Below, in pieces: positions 6,127-18,019 of a stretch of DNA of 64,000 bases. Made by a program: the position numbers and the translations under genes. Below the pieces are notes generated by a model. The model did not search any database, was not told where the DNA came from, and was given only the letters and a program-made list of their open reading frames with translations. This DNA is from Verrucomicrobia bacterium UBA2281 (lineage in GTDB: Bacteria > Verrucomicrobiota > Kiritimatiellia > CAIQIC01 > Lenti-01): positions 861-64,860 of the forward strand of contig DDWR01000009.1 in the NCBI GenBank assembly GCA_002347655.1, written 5' to 3'. The number at the start of each line of letters is the position of its first letter. The first letter of the stretch is position 1.

Positions 6127-6147
6127 GTAAAACGGCGGCCGTTTTAC
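6127..6147 (-). terminator. Hairpin GTAAAACGG-N3-CCGTTTTAC just downstream of the channel gene stop (candidate operon terminator)
   Basis: 8-bp stem read from the sequence, followed on the minus strand by GGTTGATTTG. The U-tract is weak. The arms share the heptamer GTTTTAC/GTAAAAC with the 31-bp repeat family. Confidence 0.35.
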
Positions 6148-6153
6148 CTCGTT

Positions 6154-7767
6154 TTACCGGACGCCGCCGCCCACCAGCCGCCAGAAGCGCCGCAAGATGC
6201 CGTCGCGCGACAAAGCCTGTTCCCCCGGCGCCGCGCCGGCCGCCAAGGCGTCTTCGAGCTGCCGGCGGTTCTGCTGGACCCGTTCGGCCACCAGCTGGCT
6301 GACCTGCTCGACCAGCCCCGCGTGCTTGCCCAGCAGCTCCGCGAATTCCGGCGCGGGGATCTGCAGCAATTCCGCCGATTCCGCCGCCGCGATCTCCGCC
6401 GTGCGCGGCAGGCCCGTCATCAGGCTCATTTCGCCGACCACCGCGCCCGCGCCGACTTCGAACGTCGTCGTTTGGCCCGACTCCCGGTGCGCGATGCGGC
6501 CGGCCAACCGGCCCGCCAAAACGACGTAGCAGCAGTCGCCCGCATCGCCCTGCCGGAACACCGTTTCGCCCTGGCCGTAGAGCTGGCTCGCCAGCCGGCC
6601 CGCCCAGGCCGCCAGATCCGCCGCAGGCACCAGCGGCTGGCCGTCCGCGCCGGCCAAGACCTTCTTGGCGAAATCGCTCTGCAGCAGCCCGGCCGCGCGG
6701 CGCCGGGCTTCGGGCTCTGCCGCCGGCGCCGCCGCCGGCGGCACGGCGCGCTTCATGAAGTCGTTGAGCACCTGGTCCGTCACCGGATACGGGATGTCGA
6801 TGCCGGCGCGGCGGAACTGGTACCAGACATGCCGCCGCACTTCGGCCAGCGTCGGATCGCGGAACGGATAGTCGTCCACCCAGATGCGCAGTTCATAGCC
6901 GATGCCGTAGCTCTTGAAATCCAGCAGGAGCGCGGCCGGTTCCGGCGTCCGGCGCACCGCGGGCACCGCCGCGGCGGCCGCTTGCAGCGCGGCGAGCACG
7001 CGATCGGGCGGCGCGTCGTAGCTGGCATCCACCAATACCGAGCAGCGGCGCGGCTCCGCCGGCCGGCTCAGGTGCCGGATGCGGGCCTCCGCGACCTTGG
7101 CGTTGGGCACGCGCACGGGAATCTGGTCGCGCGTCGTCAGCCAGGTTTCCCGCCAGTTCATCTCGGTAACGCGGCCTTCGAGTTCGTCGATGGCCACCCA
7201 GTCGCCGGGTGCCAGCGAGCCGGTCAGGTTCAGCGACATGCCGGCCAGCAGGTTGCCCAGCACGCCTTGCAGCGCGAAGCCGACCACCGCCGTAACCAGC
7301 GCGGTGGAGGCCAGCAGCGGCGCAACGTTCCAGCCCAGTTCGAAACGCAGGGCGCAGAACGCGGCCAGCGCCGCCATGCCCAGCCGCAGCACGCCGCGCA
7401 GCAACGCCGGCAACGCCTGGCCCTTCCAGGCGAGGATCTGCCGAAAGGTTGCCTCGCCGAGGGCGTAGGCCAGCAACAGCAGCCAGAACAGGATCCACGC
7501 CCCGGCATGGGCGGCCGGGAACCGCTCCGCCCACGTCGCGCCGGCCCACGCCGGCAAGCGCAGCGCCAGCGCGCCCAGCCCCAGCGCCAGCAACGGGAAC
7601 GGCAGGCTTTCCAGCGCCGCCCACAGCCACTTCCCCGCCAGCCCCCTTGCGGCCTGCGCGCGGCGCGCCAGCGCCCGACGCGGCGCGGCCGCCAGGCCCA
7701 GCGCCGCCAGCGCCGCCAAGATCAAGGCCGCCGCTTCCGCGAACCGGAACCAAATCGCGCTATTCAT
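6154..7767 (-). CDS. MscS-family mechanosensitive channel with C-terminal cyclic-nucleotide-binding domain (bCNG-type)
   Basis: MscS core: GNLLAGMSLNLTGSLAPGDWVAIDELEGRVTEMNWRETWL. cNMP domain with phosphate-binding cassette: VGEMSLMTGLPRTAEIAA. Confidence 0.9.
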   Translation of the reverse strand: MNSAIWFRFAEAAALILAALAALGLAAAPRRALARRAQAARGLAGKWLWAALESLPFPLLALGLGALALRLPAWAGATWAERFPAAHAGAWILFWLLLLAYALGEATFRQILAWKGQALPALLRGVLRLGMAALAAFCALRFELGWNVAPLLASTALVTAVVGFALQGVLGNLLAGMSLNLTGSLAPGDWVAIDELEGRVTEMNWRETWLTTRDQIPVRVPNAKVAEARIRHLSRPAEPRRCSVLVDASYDAPPDRVLAALQAAAAAVPAVRRTPEPAALLLDFKSYGIGYELRIWVDDYPFRDPTLAEVRRHVWYQFRRAGIDIPYPVTDQVLNDFMKRAVPPAAAPAAEPEARRRAAGLLQSDFAKKVLAGADGQPLVPAADLAAWAGRLASQLYGQGETVFRQGDAGDCCYVVLAGRLAGRIAHRESGQTTTFEVGAGAVVGEMSLMTGLPRTAEIAAAESAELLQIPAPEFAELLGKHAGLVEQVSQLVAERVQQNRRQLEDALAAGAAPGEQALSRDGILRRFWRLVGGGVR

Positions 7768-8542
7768 GCAACGTCTCCGTCATGCGTTCGCCCGCCGGCA
7801 CCGTCGCGCCTTTGAACGCCGCGGCCGCGTCGGCGGCCAGCGCGTCGATCTCGGCATCGGTCCGGCCGGGCGCGTGGTGGATCAACCAAAGCTTCGCCGC
7901 GCCGCAGCGGCGCGCGGCCTCGGCGGCATCGGCCCAAGTGCTGTGGCCCCAGCCGCGGTGCGCCGCGTATTCGTCGGGCCGGAACTGCGCATCGAACGCC
8001 AGCAGGTCCGCGCCGCGCGCGAACGCGGCGAAGGCATCCTGCGCGCGCGGGGTCATCGCCGCCCATTCGACGTCCGTGGCCACCACCGCGCACGCGCCGG
8101 TCGCCGGCTCGTCGATGCGGTAGGCCAGGCAGCCGTCGGGATGCGCGAGCGCGTGCCAGCCGATCCGGAGGCCGCCGACGTCCAGCGGAGCCGTCGGCAC
8201 GGGATACTCCGCGGCCGGCAGCTTGACCGGCCAAACCGGCGGTGAAAACACCCGTTCCAGCGCCGGTCGCAAATCGCCGTGCGGAAACACCAGTTGCTTC
8301 GGCCATGCGTCCGCCAGCGCCGGCAATCCGATGAGATGGTCCAGATGGACGTGGGTGAAAAACAGCGTGCCGCCGGGTCGCAAGCGGTCCGTCAGGTTGC
8401 GGACGCCGCTGCCGGCGTCGATCAGCGCCTGCGCGCCGTCCCGGCTTTCCGCCAGCAGCGCGAACGTGTCGCCGCCGTAGCGGATTTTATCCGCGCCCGA
8501 GACGGGGAAACTGCCGCGCGCGCCGCCCAGGATGATTTTCAT
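7760..8542 (-). CDS. MBL-fold metallo-hydrolase; candidate class II-like cyclic-nucleotide phosphodiesterase
   Basis: THVHLDHLIGL (HxHxDH), N-terminal KIILGGARGS and LIDAGSG. 8-nt overlap with the channel gene start. Confidence 0.85.
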   Translation of the reverse strand: MKIILGGARGSFPVSGADKIRYGGDTFALLAESRDGAQALIDAGSGVRNLTDRLRPGGTLFFTHVHLDHLIGLPALADAWPKQLVFPHGDLRPALERVFSPPVWPVKLPAAEYPVPTAPLDVGGLRIGWHALAHPDGCLAYRIDEPATGACAVVATDVEWAAMTPRAQDAFAAFARGADLLAFDAQFRPDEYAAHRGWGHSTWADAAEAARRCGAAKLWLIHHAPGRTDAEIDALAADAAAAFKGATVPAGERMTETLHE

Positions 8543-8552
8543 GCCGCGGCCC

Positions 8553-10700
8553 TCATTTTTCCGTCAGGTTCCAGATGCCGTCCCAGGCCGCGCCCGGCCC
8601 GGCCGCGGCCAGCGCGCGGCATTTCGCCGCATAGGTTGTCGCCGCCGCATCGGCGCCCAGCTTATCGAACCCTGCCGCCGCGTCGCTCCAGCGGCCGGCC
8701 CGCGCCAGTTCCAGCGCGGCGGCGAACGCCGCCGCTTCCGGAGCCGGCGCTTCGCCTTCCAGCCCGATCGCCTCGAACACCCGCACCGGCGTCTTCCGCC
8801 CCACCACCGTCAATTGCCCCAGCTCGCGGCCCGGGAACGCGCCGTTCGTCAGCGCCCAGGTCGACTCGGCCACCATCATGTAGGTGCCCAGCGCCTTGTT
8901 CGCGCCCTCGAGCCGCGAGGCCAGGTTCGCCGCGTCGCCCAACACCGTGTAGTCGAAGCGGTTGCTCGAGCCCATGTTGCCGACGACGACCGCGCCGGTG
9001 TTCAGGCCGATGCGCATCTTGAGCGTCGCGCCCGTGCGCTGCTCGAATTCCGCGCGGCGTTCGGCCAGCTTGCGCTGGCAGCGGACCGACGCCCGCACCG
9101 CGCGCACCGCGTGGTCGGACTGGCGCAACGGCGCGTTCCAGAACGCGATGATCGCGTCGCCCTCGTACTTGTCCAGCGTGCCGCCTTCCTCGAGGATGAT
9201 GTCGGTCATGTCGGACAGGTAGTCGTTCAGCAGCTTCGTCAGGTCTTCCGGCCCCAGCTTTTCGGAGATGGTCGAAAAGCCCTGCAGGTCGGAGAAGAAA
9301 ATCGTGAGTTCGCGTTTTTCGCCGCCGAGCTTGAGGCTGCCGGGATCGCGCAGGATCTGCTCGATCACGTCGGCGCTCAGGTAATGCTTGAAGGCGCCCT
9401 TGAGGAACAATTTCTGGCGGCCTTCCAGCACGAAGTTCGCGATGGCCCCGCCCAGCAGCGCGAGCATGGCGCCGACCATGCCGCCCGCCGCGGGAAGCAC
9501 GTAGCCGGCCGGCCAGGCCGCGAAGCCCGCCAGGGCCGGCAGCGGAATCAGGACGACGGCCGCCAACGCGCTCTGCCAGCCGCTGCGCGCGGACGCCGCG
9601 GCGACGCCCGCCGCCAGCGCCAGCAACAAGATCCACGCCGCCACGAGCGGCCCCGGCACGTCGCGCAGGAAATCGCCGGCGAGCAGGTCGTCGAGCATCG
9701 TCGCGTGGATTTCCACGCCGGGATAGCCCGCGCCCATCGGCGACGTCACCGTGTCCTTCAGGCCTGGCGCGCTGAAACCGAAGAACACGTGGGCATCCTT
9801 GAAAACGCTTCCGTCCCGGATCGGCGGTTCGGCGCCTTCCAGCAGGCGCACTTCCGACTGGACGACGGCGGCCGCGCCGAACGCCTGATGCGTCCGCGAC
9901 GGGCCGCGGAACTTCAGGATCATGCGGCCGCGGTCGTCCAGCGGAATCCGGCGCCCGCCCACGGCCAGTTCGCCGGATCGGATCGAGATGTCGCCGCGCT
10001 CCGCGCCGAGACCCGCGAGCCAGGCCGCGAAGCCCAGCGTGGGCAGGACCTGGCCGTCGAAGATGCGGAACGGCGCGGCGCGGCGGTAGATGCCGTCGGC
10101 ATCGGCCGCGGCGCTCACGTTGCCGAGCCAAGCCGCCGCGCCCGCCACTTCGGGCACGGGAAACGCCGCCCGCGGCGCAACGAGATCCGCCGCCGCTTCC
10201 GGATGCGCCGCCAGCCATGCTTCCAGCCCCTGGATTTCGATGGGACTGGGCTTGGCATGCTCGGGCCACGTCGCGGTTTGCTCCGTCTGCCGACCGAGAA
10301 AAACCGCGCCGACGAAATTGCCGAAGCGCGCGATGGCGGCGCCGAGCGCTTCGTCGTCGGGCACCCCGTAGGCCGACGGTTCCGTGTAGAGCACGTCGAA
10401 CGCCGCCGTTTGGGCCTCGTTGCGTTTCAGGTAATCCAGCAACGGGCCGTAGACTTCCCGCGGCCACGGCCAGGAGAGCCCTTGTTCCCGGCTACCCCAA
10501 TCCAGGCTTTCCTGATCCAGCAGGACCAGCTTGACCCGGTCCGTCGCTGCGGACGGCCGCGCCAGCGTGCGCGCGCGCCAATCGGCCAGCGGCGCCTCCC
10601 AGCGCGCGACGAGTCCGGTGCGCTCCAGCGCGGCCACGCCCAGCGCCGCCAGCGCGCCGGCCAACAGGCCGCAAGCCGCTTTCTTGGGAAACCGGGCCAT
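8553..10700 (-). CDS. CHASE2 sensor-domain class III adenylate cyclase
   Basis: 715 aa. N-terminal CHASE2-like periplasmic region, then TM helices. Cyclase core: IFFSDLQGFST, DKYEGDAIIAFWNAP, RIGLNTGAVVVGNMG, GDAANLASRLEG. The Lys/Thr specificity pair favours ATP. Confidence 0.9.
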   Translation of the reverse strand: MARFPKKAACGLLAGALAALGVAALERTGLVARWEAPLADWRARTLARPSAATDRVKLVLLDQESLDWGSREQGLSWPWPREVYGPLLDYLKRNEAQTAAFDVLYTEPSAYGVPDDEALGAAIARFGNFVGAVFLGRQTEQTATWPEHAKPSPIEIQGLEAWLAAHPEAAADLVAPRAAFPVPEVAGAAAWLGNVSAAADADGIYRRAAPFRIFDGQVLPTLGFAAWLAGLGAERGDISIRSGELAVGGRRIPLDDRGRMILKFRGPSRTHQAFGAAAVVQSEVRLLEGAEPPIRDGSVFKDAHVFFGFSAPGLKDTVTSPMGAGYPGVEIHATMLDDLLAGDFLRDVPGPLVAAWILLLALAAGVAAASARSGWQSALAAVVLIPLPALAGFAAWPAGYVLPAAGGMVGAMLALLGGAIANFVLEGRQKLFLKGAFKHYLSADVIEQILRDPGSLKLGGEKRELTIFFSDLQGFSTISEKLGPEDLTKLLNDYLSDMTDIILEEGGTLDKYEGDAIIAFWNAPLRQSDHAVRAVRASVRCQRKLAERRAEFEQRTGATLKMRIGLNTGAVVVGNMGSSNRFDYTVLGDAANLASRLEGANKALGTYMMVAESTWALTNGAFPGRELGQLTVVGRKTPVRVFEAIGLEGEAPAPEAAAFAAALELARAGRWSDAAAGFDKLGADAAATTYAAKCRALAAAGPGAAWDGIWNLTEK

Positions 10701-10703
10701 CGC

Positions 10704-11621
10704 CTAGAGCGATTTCGTCGCGGCCAGAAAACGCTTCTGCCGGGCGTTGGCCGACGCCTTCGACGACGCCACGCCGCTCTTCCGGAGTTCCTTGATGCGG
10801 TCCGCCGGCGCCGGATGGGTCGCCGCGAAATCCTTGCGCGACGCATCCCAGTTCTTGGCCATGTTCTCCAGCATCGCGACCAGCGCGCCGGAATTGTAGC
10901 CGGCCTGCTTGAGGATCGCGACCGCCGCGGCGTCCGCCTCGTATTCCAGTTTCCGCGAATAGCCGCTGTTCATCAGCGTCCCGGAGATGTCATTGATGGA
11001 TTCGTCGAAGGCCTTGGTCACTTCGGCGAGCTGTTCACCCGCGAGGTTCTTGCCGGCCTCGACCGCCAGGATCGTCAGGGCGGACCCGAGCCGGCCCGTC
11101 TTGATGGCCCGCAGCCCGTGCACCTTTTCGACGTGGCCGATTTCGTGCGCGAGCACGGCGGCCAGTTCGTCCTCGGTTTCGCAGCACTTCAGCAGGCCGC
11201 GCGTCACCAGGATCAGCCCGCCCGGCGCCGCGAAGGCGTTGATGTCGTCGGAATCCAGCGCCAGGAAATGGTAGCCGCCGAAGGTTTCCGGCTTGGTCGA
11301 GAACTGCGCCAGCGCCTGGCCCAGGCGGTTCAGATAGCCGTTGAGGTCGTCCGCCGGGTACGCCTTGTACTGCGCCAGCACCGTCGCCGCCACCGTGCGG
11401 CCGACGTAGTATTCCTGCTCCGGCGTGATGTCCTGGAAGGTCTTCGTCACCGCCGTGCCCACGCGCTTGGTGCTTTCGGCCTGGTCCGGCGTGATGACGC
11501 CGCCGGCGGCCGCCACGTCGGCCGCGAGCGCCGTCGCCTGGTTGACCATTTCGCAGCCCGTCGTCGCCCACGCCAGCGCCAGCGCCGCGAACCCCGTCGT
11601 CAAAATCGAAATTTTGTTCAT
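10704..11621 (-). CDS. M48-family zinc metallopeptidase lipoprotein (BepA/YfgC-like protease domain)
   Basis: HEIGH motif in AAVLAHEIGHVEKVHG, downstream EYEADAAAV, and lipobox LAWATTGC. Confidence 0.9.
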   Translation of the reverse strand: MNKISILTTGFAALALAWATTGCEMVNQATALAADVAAAGGVITPDQAESTKRVGTAVTKTFQDITPEQEYYVGRTVAATVLAQYKAYPADDLNGYLNRLGQALAQFSTKPETFGGYHFLALDSDDINAFAAPGGLILVTRGLLKCCETEDELAAVLAHEIGHVEKVHGLRAIKTGRLGSALTILAVEAGKNLAGEQLAEVTKAFDESINDISGTLMNSGYSRKLEYEADAAAVAILKQAGYNSGALVAMLENMAKNWDASRKDFAATHPAPADRIKELRKSGVASSKASANARQKRFLAATKSL

Positions 11622-11631
11622 GTCGCGCTCC

Positions 11632-12093
11632 TCAGCGAACCAAGTCGCCCTGTTTCAGGAATTCGACCAGCTGCTCGCTCGGCACGGTTTGCCGGCCCAT
11701 CCAATCCACCCAGGTGAAATCCAGCTGGGGATTCTGCTTCTTGTATTCGGATTCGACTTCCTTGCTGAAGCCCTTGCCGGCCAGCGCGACTTCCTCGCTG
11801 CCGACGGACTGGACGCGCGCGTCCGCGCCGCCCGACGCCAGCACGACTTTTTTCGGCGTGAGCGCCGACTCGTGGATCCAGCCGGTTTTTCCGGCGATGG
11901 ACACCTCGCACCAGCCCGCCTGGGTCTGGTTGACGGTCACGCGGTCGCCGTAGGCCACCGTGCCGACCACCGTGCCCAGGAACGACCCGCGGTTGCGCAA
12001 CTGTCCGTCGCGCACCTGCACGCTCATTTCTTTCGCCGCCCATGCGGCGGTCGCCGCGAGCGCCATGCAGCCTGCCAGAATCCACGTTTTCAT
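11632..12093 (-). CDS. Secreted bacterial SH3 (SH3b) domain protein
   Basis: Signal peptide MKTWILAGCMALAATAAWA. SH3-like GTVAYGDRVTVNQTQAGWCEVSIAGKTGWIHESAL. GGAG SD. Confidence 0.7.
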   Translation of the reverse strand: MKTWILAGCMALAATAAWAAKEMSVQVRDGQLRNRGSFLGTVVGTVAYGDRVTVNQTQAGWCEVSIAGKTGWIHESALTPKKVVLASGGADARVQSVGSEEVALAGKGFSKEVESEYKKQNPQLDFTWVDWMGRQTVPSEQLVEFLKQGDLVR

Positions 12094-12107: not shown

Positions 12108-13052
12108 TTACTTGTTTTCCAGTCGCTGTGCGGCCTGGAAAGTTACAAAAAGTTCGCCCAATTTCTTCGCAACCGATTCGTCGTCAAGGCGTTCCGCGAC
12201 GACCACGCCCTCTTCCAGCGTGCGCAGGGCTTCCGGCCGGAGGCCTTGCGCCCACAAGCTGCGCGCGGACCGGTAGAACCGGTCGGCGGCCCCGGCGAGA
12301 TCGTCCGCCGCCTGCGCCTGGCGGCCGCCAGCGGCCAAGGCGCGGGCCATGTCCGGCAGGCGCCCCGCCTTTTTCCACAGCGCGGCGGCTTCGTCCTGCC
12401 GCGCCAAGGCATCCTTCGGCTTATTTTCCGCCGCGGCGATCGCAGCGCGCATTTCGGCTTGTTCCGCCTGCAGCGATTCCGGCAGGGCGGCCCACGCCTT
12501 CGCCGGCATTCCCGCCAGTGCCCGCGTGGCCGCCGCGGAATTTTCCTGTGCCAACTCCGCGCCGCTTTGCGCGAGCAAAGCCTGCGCCTGCAGCGCGGGC
12601 GCGGGCTTCAGCTCCAGCGCCGCGGCGACGCGCACCTGCGCCGCGGCGGGTTGGCCGCGCGCCTGTTCCGCGCGCGCGGCCGCCACAAGCAGTTCCGCGC
12701 GGCGCGCGGATTCGATCCGCGCGTCCGCCAGCGCTTCGTCGAGCCCCGCCAAGGCGTCCGCGGCCTGGCCGGCCGCCACCAGGGCCGTCGCGCGGTTCAC
12801 GGCGGAGATCGCCAAGGCGTCCGCGTCGTCCAGCGCGCGCGCGCGCTGCTGGGCCCGGCCGTAGGCATCCGCCGCGCGACGGTAATCCCCGCGCTCATAG
12901 GCGCCCCGGCCCGTCGTGACGTGCGACACCCAGTCCGCGTCCGTGAACCGCGGCGCCGGCGGCGTCGCGCACCCCGCCGCCAAGGCGACCGCCAAGGCCG
13001 CAACCCAGCTTCCCCTGAACCCTGAACCCTGACTCCTGACTCCTGTCCTCAT
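12108..13052 (-). CDS. TPR-like all-helical lipoprotein
   Basis: Start MRTGVRSQG overlaps the MlaD stop (ATGA). Lipobox LAAGC. Ala/Leu-rich helical repeats. The long ORF 12108-13907 is a composite, and only this part is supported. Confidence 0.65.
   Translation of the reverse strand: MRTGVRSQGSGFRGSWVAALAVALAAGCATPPAPRFTDADWVSHVTTGRGAYERGDYRRAADAYGRAQQRARALDDADALAISAVNRATALVAAGQAADALAGLDEALADARIESARRAELLVAAARAEQARGQPAAAQVRVAAALELKPAPALQAQALLAQSGAELAQENSAAATRALAGMPAKAWAALPESLQAEQAEMRAAIAAAENKPKDALARQDEAAALWKKAGRLPDMARALAAGGRQAQAADDLAGAADRFYRSARSLWAQGLRPEALRTLEEGVVVAERLDDESVAKKLGELFVTFQAAQRLENK
13014..13048. repeat. Five tandem heptamers CCTGAAC CCTGAAC CCTGACT CCTGACT CCTGTCC
   Basis: Read directly. 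They occupy codons 2-13 of the TPR lipoprotein gene, immediately after the ATGA junction with mlaD. Confidence 0.8.
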
Positions 13053-14017
13053 GGCACCAACACCTCCTCGGCGCGGGCCGCGGCGTCCGAGCCCATGTAT
13101 TTTTTCAGCAGCCAATGTTTCTGCAGGCCGTCCAGCAGCGTCGTCGTTTCGCGCATCAGCGCCTGCGCGTCGCCGACCACGGCGGGCAGGTTGTCGATTT
13201 CGCCGCCGACGGTGTCGGCCATCGGAGCCAGCTTCGCCACCGTCGCCTGCAGTTCCGTCGCCACGGCATTGATTTTCGCCACCAGCTGCTGCACGTCGGC
13301 GACGATCGCCTGCACGTTTTGGGCCAGGGCCGGATCGTTCAGGATCTGCGCGGGCAGGCCGGGACCCGTGCGGACGTCTTCCAGCAAGCCGTTCGCGTTC
13401 GCCAGCAGCAGCTGCAGGCTGCCGTCGGGATCGTTCAGCGAGCCGCCCAGCGCCATGTATTCGGCGATGGCGCCGTTCACCAGCGCCAGGGTGTTGATCG
13501 CCTCCTTGCGGATCGCTTCCAGCGCTTCCTGGAGCATCTGGACGATTTCGACGTCCTTCTTGATGACGATTTCGCCGCCCGGCGCGACGGGGCCACCCCG
13601 CACGGGCAGATCCGCGCCGGTTTCGTCCTTGTCGGCGCCCAGTTCGATGTAGGCATCGCCCGTCACCACCATTTTCTTCTTCACCCAGGCGACCATGTCG
13701 GTCTTCACGTGCCGCAAGAACGACCCGCGCACCCGGATGGTGCCGGAAATGGCGCCCGTTTCGTCGTCCACGAGCAGATCCTGCACGCTGCCGACCGGCG
13801 TGCCCAGCAGGATGACTTCGGCGCCTTTTTTCAGGCCCATGAAGCCTTCCCCATGGCCCTCTTCCTGCGGCAATTTCAGCTGGAGCACGGCGGAGCCTTC
13901 GAACCAATGCTGCGCACGGCCCGCCACCAGGACGCCCGCCAGCAGAAGCAGGACCACCAGCAGCACGAAACCGCCCACGATTTCGTTCACGTATCGGAAC
14001 TTGAATTTTTTCGCCAT
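13049..14017 (-). CDS. MlaD/MCE-family substrate-binding protein
   Basis: N-terminal TM (VGGFVLLVVLLLLAGVLVAG), MCE domain (GLKKGAEVILLGTPVGSVQDL) and a long helical C-terminus. Confidence 0.85.
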   Translation of the reverse strand: MAKKFKFRYVNEIVGGFVLLVVLLLLAGVLVAGRAQHWFEGSAVLQLKLPQEEGHGEGFMGLKKGAEVILLGTPVGSVQDLLVDDETGAISGTIRVRGSFLRHVKTDMVAWVKKKMVVTGDAYIELGADKDETGADLPVRGGPVAPGGEIVIKKDVEIVQMLQEALEAIRKEAINTLALVNGAIAEYMALGGSLNDPDGSLQLLLANANGLLEDVRTGPGLPAQILNDPALAQNVQAIVADVQQLVAKINAVATELQATVAKLAPMADTVGGEIDNLPAVVGDAQALMRETTTLLDGLQKHWLLKKYMGSDAAARAEEVLVP

Positions 14018-14027
14018 GGTTTGCTCC

Positions 14028-14675
14028 TCAATCCCGCGCGGGCGCCGCGACCGTCAGCGGCGCCAGTGCCGCGCGCGTCTCCGCATCCATATCCTCGTCC
14101 AGCCAGACGACTGCGCAACCGGCCGCCCGGACGAGGGCAACCGCGGCGCGCAGCCGCGCGGCGTCTTCCGCCGGCGCACCGCGCAGCGGCCGCTCCAGCA
14201 CCAGCGCTTCCGGCCGGCCCGCAAACGCGCGCGTCCAGGCGAGCTTGCGCCGGTCGCGCTCGCGCACCGCCGGCGCGCGTTCCGCCGGCAACGGCCAGAC
14301 GCCGAAAAACCGCGCCCATTCCTCGATCGCTGCCGCCGCGTCGGCCCGCCGGTGGATGCGCGCCGGCAGCCAGACGTTTTCGTCCATGTCCAGATTCGCC
14401 AGCAGGCCGCCGTCCGCGAAGACGCACCCGATGCAGCCCCGTTCCGCCGCGGCCGCCGCGGGATCGCGGTCCCGCCACTCGACGCCTTTCCAGAACACCT
14501 GCCCGTGCGGCGGCGGCTCGATGCCCGTCAGCCAGTCCAGCCACGACCGGCCGGAATCCGTTCCGTCGGGAATCCAGAGCGCCGCGCCCGGTGCCAGCGC
14601 GAAGCTCCACGCCGGCCCCGGCGCCGCCCCGCGCACCGCCGCCACCCGGATCAATTCGCTGGATTCGCCGTCCAT
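14028..14675 (-). CDS. MlaF-like ABC ATPase homolog with all catalytic motifs degenerate (pseudo-ATPase)
   Basis: Motif spacing is ABC-like. Walker A is DGTDSGRS, Q-loop FADGG, signature VRERD, Walker B ALVLERP, H-loop WLDED. Confidence 0.65.
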   Translation of the reverse strand: MDGESSELIRVAAVRGAAPGPAWSFALAPGAALWIPDGTDSGRSWLDWLTGIEPPPHGQVFWKGVEWRDRDPAAAAAERGCIGCVFADGGLLANLDMDENVWLPARIHRRADAAAAIEEWARFFGVWPLPAERAPAVRERDRRKLAWTRAFAGRPEALVLERPLRGAPAEDAARLRAAVALVRAAGCAVVWLDEDMDAETRAALAPLTVAAPARD

Positions 14676-14685
14676 TCCGCTTTTC

Positions 14686-15486
14686 CTAGAGATACGCCAT
14701 CAGGGACACCAGCAGCGACGTCACGAACAGCGCCGCCACCGACCGCATCACGCCGCGGGTCGCCGCGATGGGCACTTCCGTGACCGCCGCGCCCACGGCG
14801 AACGCTTCGTCGCAGCAGATCGCGCCCGTCAGCATGCCCGGCAGGATCGACTTCGCCAGCAGGCTGAAGACGTCCGCCACCGTCACCGCGCCGATGATGT
14901 TGCCGAAAAACAGGCCCATGTCGAGGTCGCCCAGGCGGATCACCCACAGGCACGCGAAGCCGCCGATGAAGGTCACCGCCAGAAAAATGATCGTCAGGCA
15001 GAAGGTCGAGGCCGCCACGCCGATCACGCGCGGCACCACCAGGTAGACGAACGGATCGATGCCCATCGCGTCCAGCGCGCGCACTTCCCCGTGGACCTTC
15101 ATGTTGGCCAGTTCCGTCGAGATGGCCGTGCCGCTGCGCGCGATCACCACGAAATTCGTCAAGAGCGGCCCCAGTTCGCGCAGCACGACGGCGGTCAGGA
15201 TGGGGCCGATGAGCGCCGTCTGGCCCAGGCGCGTCAGCCAGTACTGCGCCTGCACGACGACCAACGTGCCCACGATCAGCGCGATGAGCGCGACGAAGTT
15301 CGTCGCTTCCAGCCCCGTGAAAAGGATCTGGCGCGCCAGCACGTTGCGCAGCGGCGGGGTCCAGAGCGCCGGCCGCAGCGCCTGCGTCCCCGCCGCCCAG
15401 ACCAGCGCGGCCGTCCGCGCCGCCCGGCCCAACCGGGCCAGCGTCGCCGCGCCAATGGCACCCAACACGTTCATCTTGCGCGGCAT
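14686..15486 (-). CDS. MlaE-family ABC transporter permease
   Basis: RELGPLLTNFVVIARSGTAISTELANMKVHGEVRALDAMGIDPFVYLVVPRV is the MlaE signature region. Start is MPRKMNVL (15486) or MNVL (15474). Confidence 0.85.
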   Translation of the reverse strand: MPRKMNVLGAIGAATLARLGRAARTAALVWAAGTQALRPALWTPPLRNVLARQILFTGLEATNFVALIALIVGTLVVVQAQYWLTRLGQTALIGPILTAVVLRELGPLLTNFVVIARSGTAISTELANMKVHGEVRALDAMGIDPFVYLVVPRVIGVAASTFCLTIIFLAVTFIGGFACLWVIRLGDLDMGLFFGNIIGAVTVADVFSLLAKSILPGMLTGAICCDEAFAVGAAVTEVPIAATRGVMRSVAALFVTSLLVSLMAYL

Positions 15487-17166: not shown

Positions 17167-17218
17167 AACGTAAAAACTTTCGCGCGGTTTTACGTAGCAC
17201 GTAAAAACTTTGCGCCGC
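17155..17218 (+). repeat. Tandem dimer of the 31-bp palindromic element TTTTACGTRGAACGTARAAACTTT(C)GCGC (locus A)
   Basis: Copies at 17157-17187 and 17188-17218. Arms TTTTACGT/ACGTAAAA. The same dimer occurs at 40133-40193 (inverted) and 48340-48401. Confidence 0.85.
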
Positions 17219-17245
17219 CCCCGGGAACGTGGGACAGTGGCCGCC

Positions 17246-18019
17246 ATGCGCGTGACCTTTCTGGGAACCGGAACGTCCTATGGCGTGCCCATGCCGGGAT
17301 GCGACTGCGCGGTCTGCCGTTCGGCCGACCCGCGCGACCGGCGCTTCCGCACGGCGATCTACGTCGAGACTCCGGACGCCGCGCTGCTGATCGACACGCC
17401 CCCAGACTTGCGCAGCCAATGCCTCGCCGCCGGCGTGCGGCGGATCGACGCCGTGCTGATGACCCACGACCACGCCGACCACGTCTTCGGGTTCGACGAC
17501 CTGCGGCCGTTCACCAACCGCATGCCGGAGCCCATGCCGGTGTGGGCCTCGCCCGGCACGGCGAAAACGCTGCGCAAGATCTTCGACTATCTCGACCGGC
17601 CGCCGATCCCGGGCACGTCGCTGGCGCGCATCGACCTGCGCACGGCGACGGGCGCCCCGTTCGAATTCCGCGGCGTGCGCCTGACGCCGCTGCCCGCCGA
17701 ACACGGCCGCGCCGACATGGTCGGCTGGAAGCTCGAGTGCGGCGGGCGTTCGTTCGCCGCGATTCCCGACTGCAAGCGCCTGCCGCCGGAAACCCTGGAC
17801 CTCTGCCGCGGCGTGGACCTGGCGGCGATCGACGCGCTGCGCATCCGGCCCCACCCCACGCACATGAACCTGGCAGAGGCGGCGGCGATCCTGGGCCAGA
17901 TCGGCGCACGGCGCTCGCTGGTTCTCCATCTGTGCCACGAGGTGTCGCACGCGCAGGCCGACGCGCTCCTGCCCGCCGGGATTTCCCCGGCCTACGACGG
18001 GCTGCAAATCGACCTGTGA
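17246..18019 (+). CDS. MBL-fold hydrolase, PhnP-like cyclic phosphodiesterase
   Basis: VTFLGTGTSYGVPMPGCDCAVCRS (the CxCxxC of PhnP-type enzymes) and LMTHDHADH. Confidence 0.8.
   Translation: MRVTFLGTGTSYGVPMPGCDCAVCRSADPRDRRFRTAIYVETPDAALLIDTPPDLRSQCLAAGVRRIDAVLMTHDHADHVFGFDDLRPFTNRMPEPMPVWASPGTAKTLRKIFDYLDRPPIPGTSLARIDLRTATGAPFEFRGVRLTPLPAEHGRADMVGWKLECGGRSFAAIPDCKRLPPETLDLCRGVDLAAIDALRIRPHPTHMNLAEAAAILGQIGARRSLVLHLCHEVSHAQADALLPAGISPAYDGLQIDL

Follow-up and report, generated by a model that had tools for sequence, protein, structure and literature searches.

The CHASE2 receptor cyclases CyaD1, CyaD2 and CyaK of S. meliloti join a CHASE2 sensor to a class III catalytic domain and are activated by a plant signal. 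Deletion of CHASE2 from CyaD1 makes production of cyclic AMP (cAMP) constitutive, and genes for extracytoplasmic TPR and FecR proteins lie near cyaD1. MscS-like channels with a C-terminal domain that binds cyclic nucleoside monophosphates (cNMPs) make up the bCNG family (Caldwell 2010; Malcolm 2012; reviewed in PMC13591265). Among enzymes with the metallo-beta-lactamase (MBL) fold, M. tuberculosis Rv1339, C. glutamicum CpdA and YfhI have been grouped as 'atypical class-II PDEs' (phosphodiesterases), which carry the PF12706 domain and a [T/S]HxHxDH motif and are close to RNase Z (Thomson et al., 2022; PMC9293780). YhfI prefers cAMP and cyclic GMP (cGMP) over cyclic CMP and cyclic UMP (cCMP and cUMP), and the Apyc1 enzymes, which are related to YhfI, hydrolyze cyclic mononucleotides broadly (Hobbs et al., 2022; PMC9117128). 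Here we compare these systems with a locus on a 64,000-nucleotide (nt) stretch of DNA from Verrucomicrobia bacterium UBA2281 (contig DDWR01000009.1, positions 861 to 64,860), which we call the window. The locus is a minus-strand unit of five genes, the last three of which encode a predicted CHASE2 adenylate cyclase, an MBL-fold hydrolase and an MscS-type channel with a cNMP-binding domain.

We propose that these three genes make up the output part of an operon of five genes, in which the CHASE2 cyclase would make cAMP, the channel would sense it and the MBL protein would erase it. We put the probability of this reading at about 0.6. Sequence gives good support to the cyclase and channel parts, and the eraser part is argued indirectly, from fold, motif and a strong genomic linkage. 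Each component is a further member of an already known kind. The features of the unit, in gene order, are as follows.

11632..12093, minus strand: secreted SH3-domain protein of 153 amino acids (aa), the first gene of the five-gene unit (Pfam SH3_3, 8.7e-09).
10704..11621, minus strand: M48-family zinc metalloprotease, predicted lipoprotein, 305 aa (Pfam Peptidase_M48, 2.3e-35).
8553..10700, minus strand: predicted CHASE2 class III (IIIb-type) receptor adenylate cyclase, 715 aa (Pfam CHASE2, 4.5e-45; Guanylate_cyc, 3.8e-20).
7760..8542, minus strand: MBL-fold hydrolase, cytoplasmic, 260 aa, predicted cAMP/cNMP phosphodiesterase (PF12706, 1.3e-15).
6154..7767, minus strand: MscS-type channel with C-terminal cNMP-binding domain, 537 aa (MS_channel_2nd, MS_channel_3rd; cNMP_binding, 8.1e-18).
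6127..6147, no strand assigned: palindromic hairpin with a 9-bp stem and a 3-nt loop, 7 nt beyond the channel stop, likely the end of the transcription unit.

The five genes are closely packed across 6154-12093, with gaps of 10 nt between SH3 and M48, 3 nt between M48 and cyclase, and 10 nt between cyclase and MBL. The MBL stop and the channel start overlap by 8 nt (shared letters ATGAATAG), and because of this overlap the two proteins are probably synthesized together. The cyclase, MBL and channel genes look co-transcribed and translationally coupled, in keeping with the original prediction, which had assigned them to one transcript and had their coordinates and quoted motifs all correct. It had also presented the three genes as a self-contained cassette. 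That description has to be given up, since they are the tail of the five-gene unit, and the MBL and channel genes are each dispensable in sister loci. The next gene after the hairpin is glgC, whose start lies 108 nt further on. A scan of both strands for promoters and terminators gave nothing above shuffled sequence, the position of this one hairpin apart. Its T-tract is weak and, because such sites are no commoner in the region than in shuffled sequence, a role as terminator is suggested by position only.

The same gene order, with the same lengths (153, 305, 715, 260 and 537 aa), was found in independent gene calls on metagenome contigs that encode an identical MBL protein. The closest relatives come from metagenome-derived genome assemblies of Kiritimatiellae, Verrucomicrobiota and Lentisphaerae, and the order also occurs in metagenome-derived assemblies of Kiritimatiellae/Verrucomicrobiota, Aminicenantes and Eubacteriales. 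The whole 64-kb window contains one cyclase gene and one cNMP-binding gene only. The grouping of the three genes is not a matter of chance, because the order recurs across phyla and the single cyclase and single cNMP-binding gene of the window stand together.

In architecture, the window cyclase resembles CyaD1, CyaD2 and CyaK. By hydropathy, it has one transmembrane (TM) segment at residues 8-26 and three at 344-425, giving the order TM1, extracytoplasmic CHASE2, three TM segments, class III catalytic domain and a tail of ~70 aa. Since CHASE2 fills the ~315-aa stretch between the TM segment at 8-26 and those at 344-425, the sensor would lie outside the cell and the catalytic domain in the cytoplasm. 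The setting differs from that in S. meliloti: the downstream effector is a channel encoded in the same operon rather than a Crp-type regulator, and the partner genes encode an SH3 protein and an M48 lipoprotein rather than TPR and FecR proteins.

The best solved relatives of the cyclase are the Cya2-derived IlaC (6.9e-38), P. aeruginosa CyaB (3R5G, 1.5e-37) and Cya2 (2W01, 1.7e-33). Its motifs FFSDLQGFS, LDKYEGDAII, FDYTVLGD and AANLASRLE hold the six catalytic residues, D (in FFSDLQGF), K and D (in LDKYEGD), T (in FDYTVLGD), and N and R (in AANLASRLE), all of which align with those of CyaB. The earlier claim that the enzyme keeps its metal-binding Asp residues, its Lys/Thr specificity pair and its Asn/Arg transition-state residues is thus borne out. 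The alignments to IlaC, CyaB and Cya2 show identity at both metal Asps, at the Asn and at the Arg. The specificity pair is Lys/Thr in the window cyclase, as in the adenylate cyclase CyaB, whereas it is Glu/Gly in the guanylate cyclase Cya2. The natural reading of these residues is an active, ATP-specific enzyme. The same six residues are common to the most frequent motif variants of the cyclases that neighbor MBL homologs elsewhere; the exceptions are one group in which the Arg is changed to Lys and a small number of divergent sequences.

The channel has the bCNG architecture, in which a cNMP-binding domain is joined to the C-terminal side of an MscS pore helix and cytoplasmic cage. The match to E. 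coli MscS (2VV5, 4.9e-17) covers residues 92-331, and the pore-helix residues G108, Q112, G113, N117 and G121 of MscS are kept. In the pore helix (residues ~144-175), the MscS gate positions L105 and L109 are Ala and Phe, and the Gly kink residues are kept; the protein has two additional hydrophobic segments at the N-terminus. Residues 397-481 form the cNMP-binding domain, which the cNMP-binding domains of Epac and PKA-R match at ~1e-11 over 399-482. The phosphate-binding cassette, GEMSLMTGLPRTAE, had been described as intact, and it does keep both the ribose-contacting Glu and the Arg-Thr-Ala with the phosphate-contacting Arg. The channel should bind cAMP. A G-E...R-[TMN]-A pattern is present in the most frequent variants of the cNMP-binding domains encoded next to MBL homologs, one variant being without the Arg. 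Members of the bCNG family have been described mostly from cyanobacteria (PMC13591265), whereas the source here is of the Kiritimatiellae/Planctomycetes-Verrucomicrobia-Chlamydiae type. The window channel differs from described members also in being encoded together with a cyclase and a putative PDE in a single operon, in its two extra N-terminal segments and in the Ala/Phe at the gate positions.

The role of the MBL protein is less direct to establish. The original prediction had taken it for a class II cAMP PDE from part of the family signature. The full PROSITE signature (PDEASE_II) has 15 positions, H-x-H-L-D-H-[LIVM]-x-[GS]-[LIVMA]-[LIVM](2)-x-S-[AP]. Like the canonical class II PDEs (PF02112; yeast PDE1, 4OJV, and Vibrio fischeri CpdP), the window protein belongs to the MBL superfamily and has the HxHLDH motif, and its HVHLDHLIGL fits the first ten positions as claimed; however, the next five residues, PALAD, fail positions 11-15. 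Among 81 relatives, the first ten positions fit in 37 and all 15 in none, and the Leu of HxHLDH (position 4) is not conserved, being L in 38 and W in 34. A profile hidden Markov model comparison gave no match to PF02112 (PDEase_II) in the window protein at E<=10, nor in 21 family members at E<=0.01. In Foldseek, yeast PDE1 ranks 49 (TM-score 0.66 query-normalised and 0.49 target-normalised, root-mean-square deviation 6.9), and YhfI, RNase Z, PhnP and PqqB all rank above it. A canonical class II identity was rejected on these grounds: the missing PF02112 match, the incomplete signature and the rank of the PDE1 fold. As to the proposal that writer, eraser and effector are encoded together, the class II argument for the eraser is invalid, but the MBL family is tied to cNMP signaling by its gene neighborhoods, as described below.

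The protein instead falls in the RNase Z/YhfI branch of the MBL superfamily, where it belongs to a separate, unnamed family. Its AlphaFold2 model (pLDDT 94, pTM 0.92) has B. subtilis YhfI (6KNS) as the top Foldseek match, with an E value of 1.1e-15 and TM-scores of 0.74-0.81 over the YhfI chains, followed by RNase Z (1Y44) and B. anthracis BA1088 (1ZKP). An end-to-end alignment of the family profile was obtained to 1ZKP (3.8e-13, positions 1-244) and to 6KNS (6.1e-11, positions 1-246 to YhfI 7-238). The proteins of the RNase Z family align with it only as two separate stretches. RNase Z has a flexible tRNA-binding arm (exosite) inserted between metal motifs II and III. The alignment probably breaks in two because this arm stretch is replaced by a short family-specific loop, FSPPVWPV; at 260 aa the window protein is 45-60 residues shorter than RNase Z (306-320 aa), and the short conserved loop lies between the two aligned stretches.

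The features by which the atypical class-II PDEs are recognized, PF12706 and [T/S]HxHxDH, are both present: the motif reads THVHLDH in the window protein, and T or S precedes the first His in all 81 relatives. Like Rv1339, CpdA, YhfI and phage Apyc1, the window protein is a compact MBL fold of ~250-270 aa, probably lacks the RNase Z arm and has a full set of di-metal ligands. The ligands D42, H64, H66, D68, H69, H134, D157, H200 and H222 are all invariant in the closer relatives; when fusion proteins are added to the alignment, H223 takes the place of H222 as the conserved ligand. The IDAGSG and LGGARGS segments are present as well, and neither a TM segment nor a signal peptide was found in the protein. 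Identity to YhfI is, however, only ~22%, and unlike the atypical class-II PDEs the family has invariant motifs of its own (R..FSPPVWPV, ATDxEW and GWGHSTW, beside THxHxDH) and belongs to no curated family. The window MBL gene adjoins a cyclase gene, an adjacency that is not mentioned for Rv1339 or YhfI in PMC9293780 and PMC9117128.

Clustering with RNase Z had been named in advance as a result that would speak against a PDE. The clustering is real, but the branch includes the proven MBL-fold cAMP phosphodiesterases Rv1339, CpdA and YhfI, so that placement in it supports the PDE idea. On fold, motif and indirect genomic linkage, the MBL protein is most likely a cAMP phosphodiesterase. The family is large: when its profile was run against 1.84 billion cluster representatives, 1,188 matched at E<=1e-30, or ~1,200 clusters at 50% identity. 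Its members are publicly named 'ribonuclease BN' (by the Joint Genome Institute, JGI), 'MBL fold metallo-hydrolase', or not at all.

The genomic linkage was examined in 80 genome loci drawn from >590 matches of the MBL family, within a range of 7 kb. A class III cyclase gene was present in 47 of the 80 loci, a cNMP-binding gene in 30 and one or the other in 54. These neighbors lie mostly within 500 nt of the MBL gene (<=500 nt), and almost none lies more than 3.5 kb away. At least six distinct arrangements were seen across phyla:

SH3, M48, CHASE2 cyclase, MBL, with or without the MscS/cNMP channel: Kiritimatiellae/Verrucomicrobiota; Aminicenantes (L039, L043, L060, L068); Eubacteriales (L040, L070).
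Stand-alone cNMP-binding protein (152 aa), MBL, LuxR-type gene, cyclase: Roseibium.
CHASE2 cyclase, TPR protein, MBL: Bryobacterales.
MscS/cNMP channel, MBL, convergent cyclase: L034.
MBL, CHASE2 cyclase: Omnitrophota (L018).
Bare pair of CHASE2 cyclase and MBL: L085.

That the arrangement differs from lineage to lineage speaks for a functional linkage and not merely an inherited one. In the Roseibium-type loci, this MBL family is the center of another, independent cNMP module. In these loci of marine alphaproteobacteria (Roseibium album, L045 6502-10860; also L048, L052, L057, L063-L065 and L078), ~10 nt separate the genes for the 152-aa cNMP-binding protein and the MBL protein, and a weakly LuxR-like gene (GerE match under the Pfam cut-off) and a class III cyclase gene lie downstream.

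Members of the MBL family are also found fused to other domains with all catalytic residues kept, namely to the PycTM membrane effector domain, to a weak PilZ domain and to DUF6901. The PycTM domain is that of the two-TM Pycsar effector and was seen in P0197, and also in P0184 and P0187. The gene for P0197 (L167 5001-6494; L168 4082-5575) directly follows an SH3, M48 and CHASE2-cyclase triad and stands where separate MBL and channel genes would be. The specificity pair of the cyclase encoded there is Lys/Ser. In L167, an HTH (helix-turn-helix)/AbiEii gene pair lies ~1.5 kb downstream of the fusion. Such fusions are uncommon, since no further PycTM-like domain was found in 160 loci (L001-L080 and L087-L166). 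The remaining fusions (P0237, P0238, P0242 and P0174) have weak PilZ-like C-termini, below the Pfam cut-off, or a strong DUF6901 match (6.3e-73).

When metagenomes were scanned with a profile of the M48 protein (loci L087-L166), the SH3 gene was upstream of M48 in all 65 evaluable loci, and a CHASE2 gene was directly downstream in 48 of 54. Twenty-five of the loci had enough sequence past the cyclase to be read further. Six of them have both MBL and channel, three MBL only, four a downstream channel only and two a divergent upstream channel; the remaining ten have neither. The conserved core is thus the SH3, M48 and CHASE2-cyclase triad, and MBL and channel are optional output and reset modules, of which the window holds the fullest version. 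Other effectors were sought behind the cyclase in the ten loci that have neither and were discarded, the downstream genes being unrelated or unannotated (of nine scanned, seven have housekeeping-type Pfam domains and two have no match). A pairing of SH3/M48 with other types of sensor was likewise dismissed; in the five loci without CHASE2, the downstream genes are unrelated.

The N-terminus of the SH3 protein is signal-like. The M48 protein carries a lipobox (ATTGC) as well as an HEIGH motif and scores 103 bits against BepA and 70 bits against LoiP, both far under the cut-offs. The signal-like N-terminus and the lipobox place the two proteins in the same compartment as CHASE2, and they may feed the CHASE2 sensor. 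We found no description of the five-gene operon, of the cyclase-linked MBL family or of the triad in the searchable literature, which leaves most subscription journals outside.

The proposed sequence of events is then that CHASE2 senses an extracytoplasmic cue, probably with the help of the two secreted partners, and the cue would turn on the class IIIb catalytic domain to make cAMP. Binding of cAMP to the C-terminal domain of the presumably heptameric MscS-type channel would alter gating, as suggested by membership in the bCNG family. The MBL protein, as a di-metal phosphodiesterase, would hydrolyze cAMP to 5'-AMP and so reset the signal.

Several observations weigh against the cAMP operon as proposed here. 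Neither MBL nor channel is present in 10 of the 25 M48-sampled loci, and in 6 of the 25 there is a channel without MBL, which means that the PDE is not an obligatory part of the unit. Cyclase and cNMP-binding genes are both absent within 7 kb in 26 of the 80 MBL loci. The MBL protein scores better against RNase Z (57.6 bits) than against the Rv1339-type NCBIfam equivalog NF041851 (35 bits, cut-off 400 bits; ten diverse relatives 33-55 bits), and it is far under every curated cut-off. The terminator and promoter calls are weak. For the channel, overexpressed bCNG proteins gave E. coli no protection from osmotic downshock, and both the physiological role of the family and the role of cyclic nucleotides in its gating are open, with no structural data on the latter (2026 review, PMC13591265).

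Three other explanations of the locus need to be considered. The MBL protein might have no part in cNMP turnover and serve instead as an RNase Z-like housekeeping nuclease or as a general phosphodiesterase, its position being only inherited synteny. RNase Z/RNase BN comes top by score in NCBIfam (57.6 bits against TIGR02651) and in the PDB (2CBN, 1.3e-08 and 1.2e-13), the relatives carry the JGI label 'ribonuclease BN', the RNase Z-type 'GHST' histidine motif can be seen within GWGHSTW, and 26 of the 80 MBL-family loci are without a cyclase or cNMP-binding neighbor. However, every RNase Z score falls 3- to 10-fold short of its curated cut-off (293 for TIGR02651; 53.5 bits against a cut-off of 252 for NF000801; relatives 50-96 bits), the RNase Z alignment comes in two pieces with the tRNA-arm stretch probably replaced by the FSPPVWPV loop, and the cyclase/cNMP linkage of the family, which peaks at immediate adjacency, takes at least six independent forms across unrelated phyla. 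We regard a housekeeping nuclease as unlikely. The MBL protein might also be an enzyme that acts on a different cyclic phosphodiester, such as a 2',3'-cNMP, cCMP/cUMP or a cyclic dinucleotide, and not on the product of the cyclase. Apyc1-type MBL enzymes are promiscuous across cNMPs (PMC9117128), the family includes the weak PilZ fusions, the annotation of one relative reads 1,2-cyclic phosphodiesterase, and PhnP-family models match the MBL protein weakly. Yet the partner cyclase has adenylate-type specificity residues, the partner effectors have canonical cNMP-binding domains, the PilZ matches stay under the Pfam cut-off, and YhfI, the nearest structure, prefers cAMP and cGMP. A different substrate is the least probable of the three alternatives.

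Between these two in likelihood, and doubtful as well, is a Pycsar-like system of defense or of response to envelope damage, in which attack on the envelope fires the cyclase, the cNMP opens a permeabilizing effector, and the MBL protein provides a threshold or a self-timer. The window unit does resemble Pycsar in pairing a membrane effector that binds cNMPs with a class III-like cyclase. PADLOC places PycC on the cyclase domain (2.8e-34) and the cNMP-binding domain of PycTIR on the channel (7.2e-13), the same MBL family is fused to PycTM (4.9e-17 and 1.1e-15) with catalytic residues kept, and one such fusion follows the triad with an AbiEii gene nearby. Some MBL relatives have precomputed matches to PF23023 (Anti-Pycsar_Apyc1), those being P0114 and P0197; local Pfam scans gave this match on no protein scanned, the two copies of Pfam probably differing and the local one perhaps lacking the model, and the window MBL protein has no PF23023 entry in either the precomputed tables or the local scans. 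Against a defense system, the PADLOC matches on cyclase and channel reflect generic domain homology, and PADLOC gave no match on the MBL protein. The window cyclase has a purine-type Lys/Thr pair like that of CyaB and no known pyrimidine cyclase signature. Described Pycsar cyclases are not known to be transmembrane receptors with periplasmic partners, as the window cyclase is. The window unit differs from Pycsar further in its operon-encoded putative PDE and in its place in conserved housekeeping synteny of this lineage (Mla upstream, glgC downstream), with no defense island. In the BFVD viral structure library, the MBL protein matched generic MBL hydrolases only, with no Apyc1-like top match, which was uninformative, and in PHROGs it had only a weak match to 'metal-dependent hydrolase'.

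Beyond the operon in the window, a broader reading can be put forward, although we consider it improbable. The SH3-M48-CHASE2 triad would be a widespread and so far undescribed envelope-surveillance module, in which the secreted partners give the orphan CHASE2 sensor its input and cAMP drives a membrane-permeabilizing output, the bCNG channel here and the PycTM-MBL fusion in sister operons, with the MBL PDE as a timer. The whole would be a receptor-triggered, Pycsar-like stress or defense circuit rather than cAMP housekeeping.

The locus bears on three matters. An operon that encodes its own cyclase and a probable PDE offers a definite genetic setting for tests of bCNG channels. The near-obligate pairing nominates the SH3 protein and the M48 lipoprotein as partners of CHASE2, a common extracytoplasmic sensor. 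And should the MBL family be a cAMP phosphodiesterase, it would be the 'eraser' so far missing from many phyla, and a widespread error of annotation would be put right.

The flanks of the operon add a few observations. Upstream on the same strand, metagenome contigs with the identical MBL protein encode MlaE, a 215-aa protein, MlaD and a 314-aa lipoprotein. The window has the same four genes at 12108-15486 on the minus strand, with gaps of <=14 nt, the 314-aa predicted lipoprotein having the lipobox LAAGC. Given these small gaps and the common strand, the transcription unit may begin well upstream of the SH3 gene. The Mla flank is kept only among the Kiritimatiellae/Verrucomicrobiota relatives. 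Elsewhere in the window, at 17198-18016 on the plus strand, a second open reading frame gives a weak match to the MBL-family model (7.2e-10).

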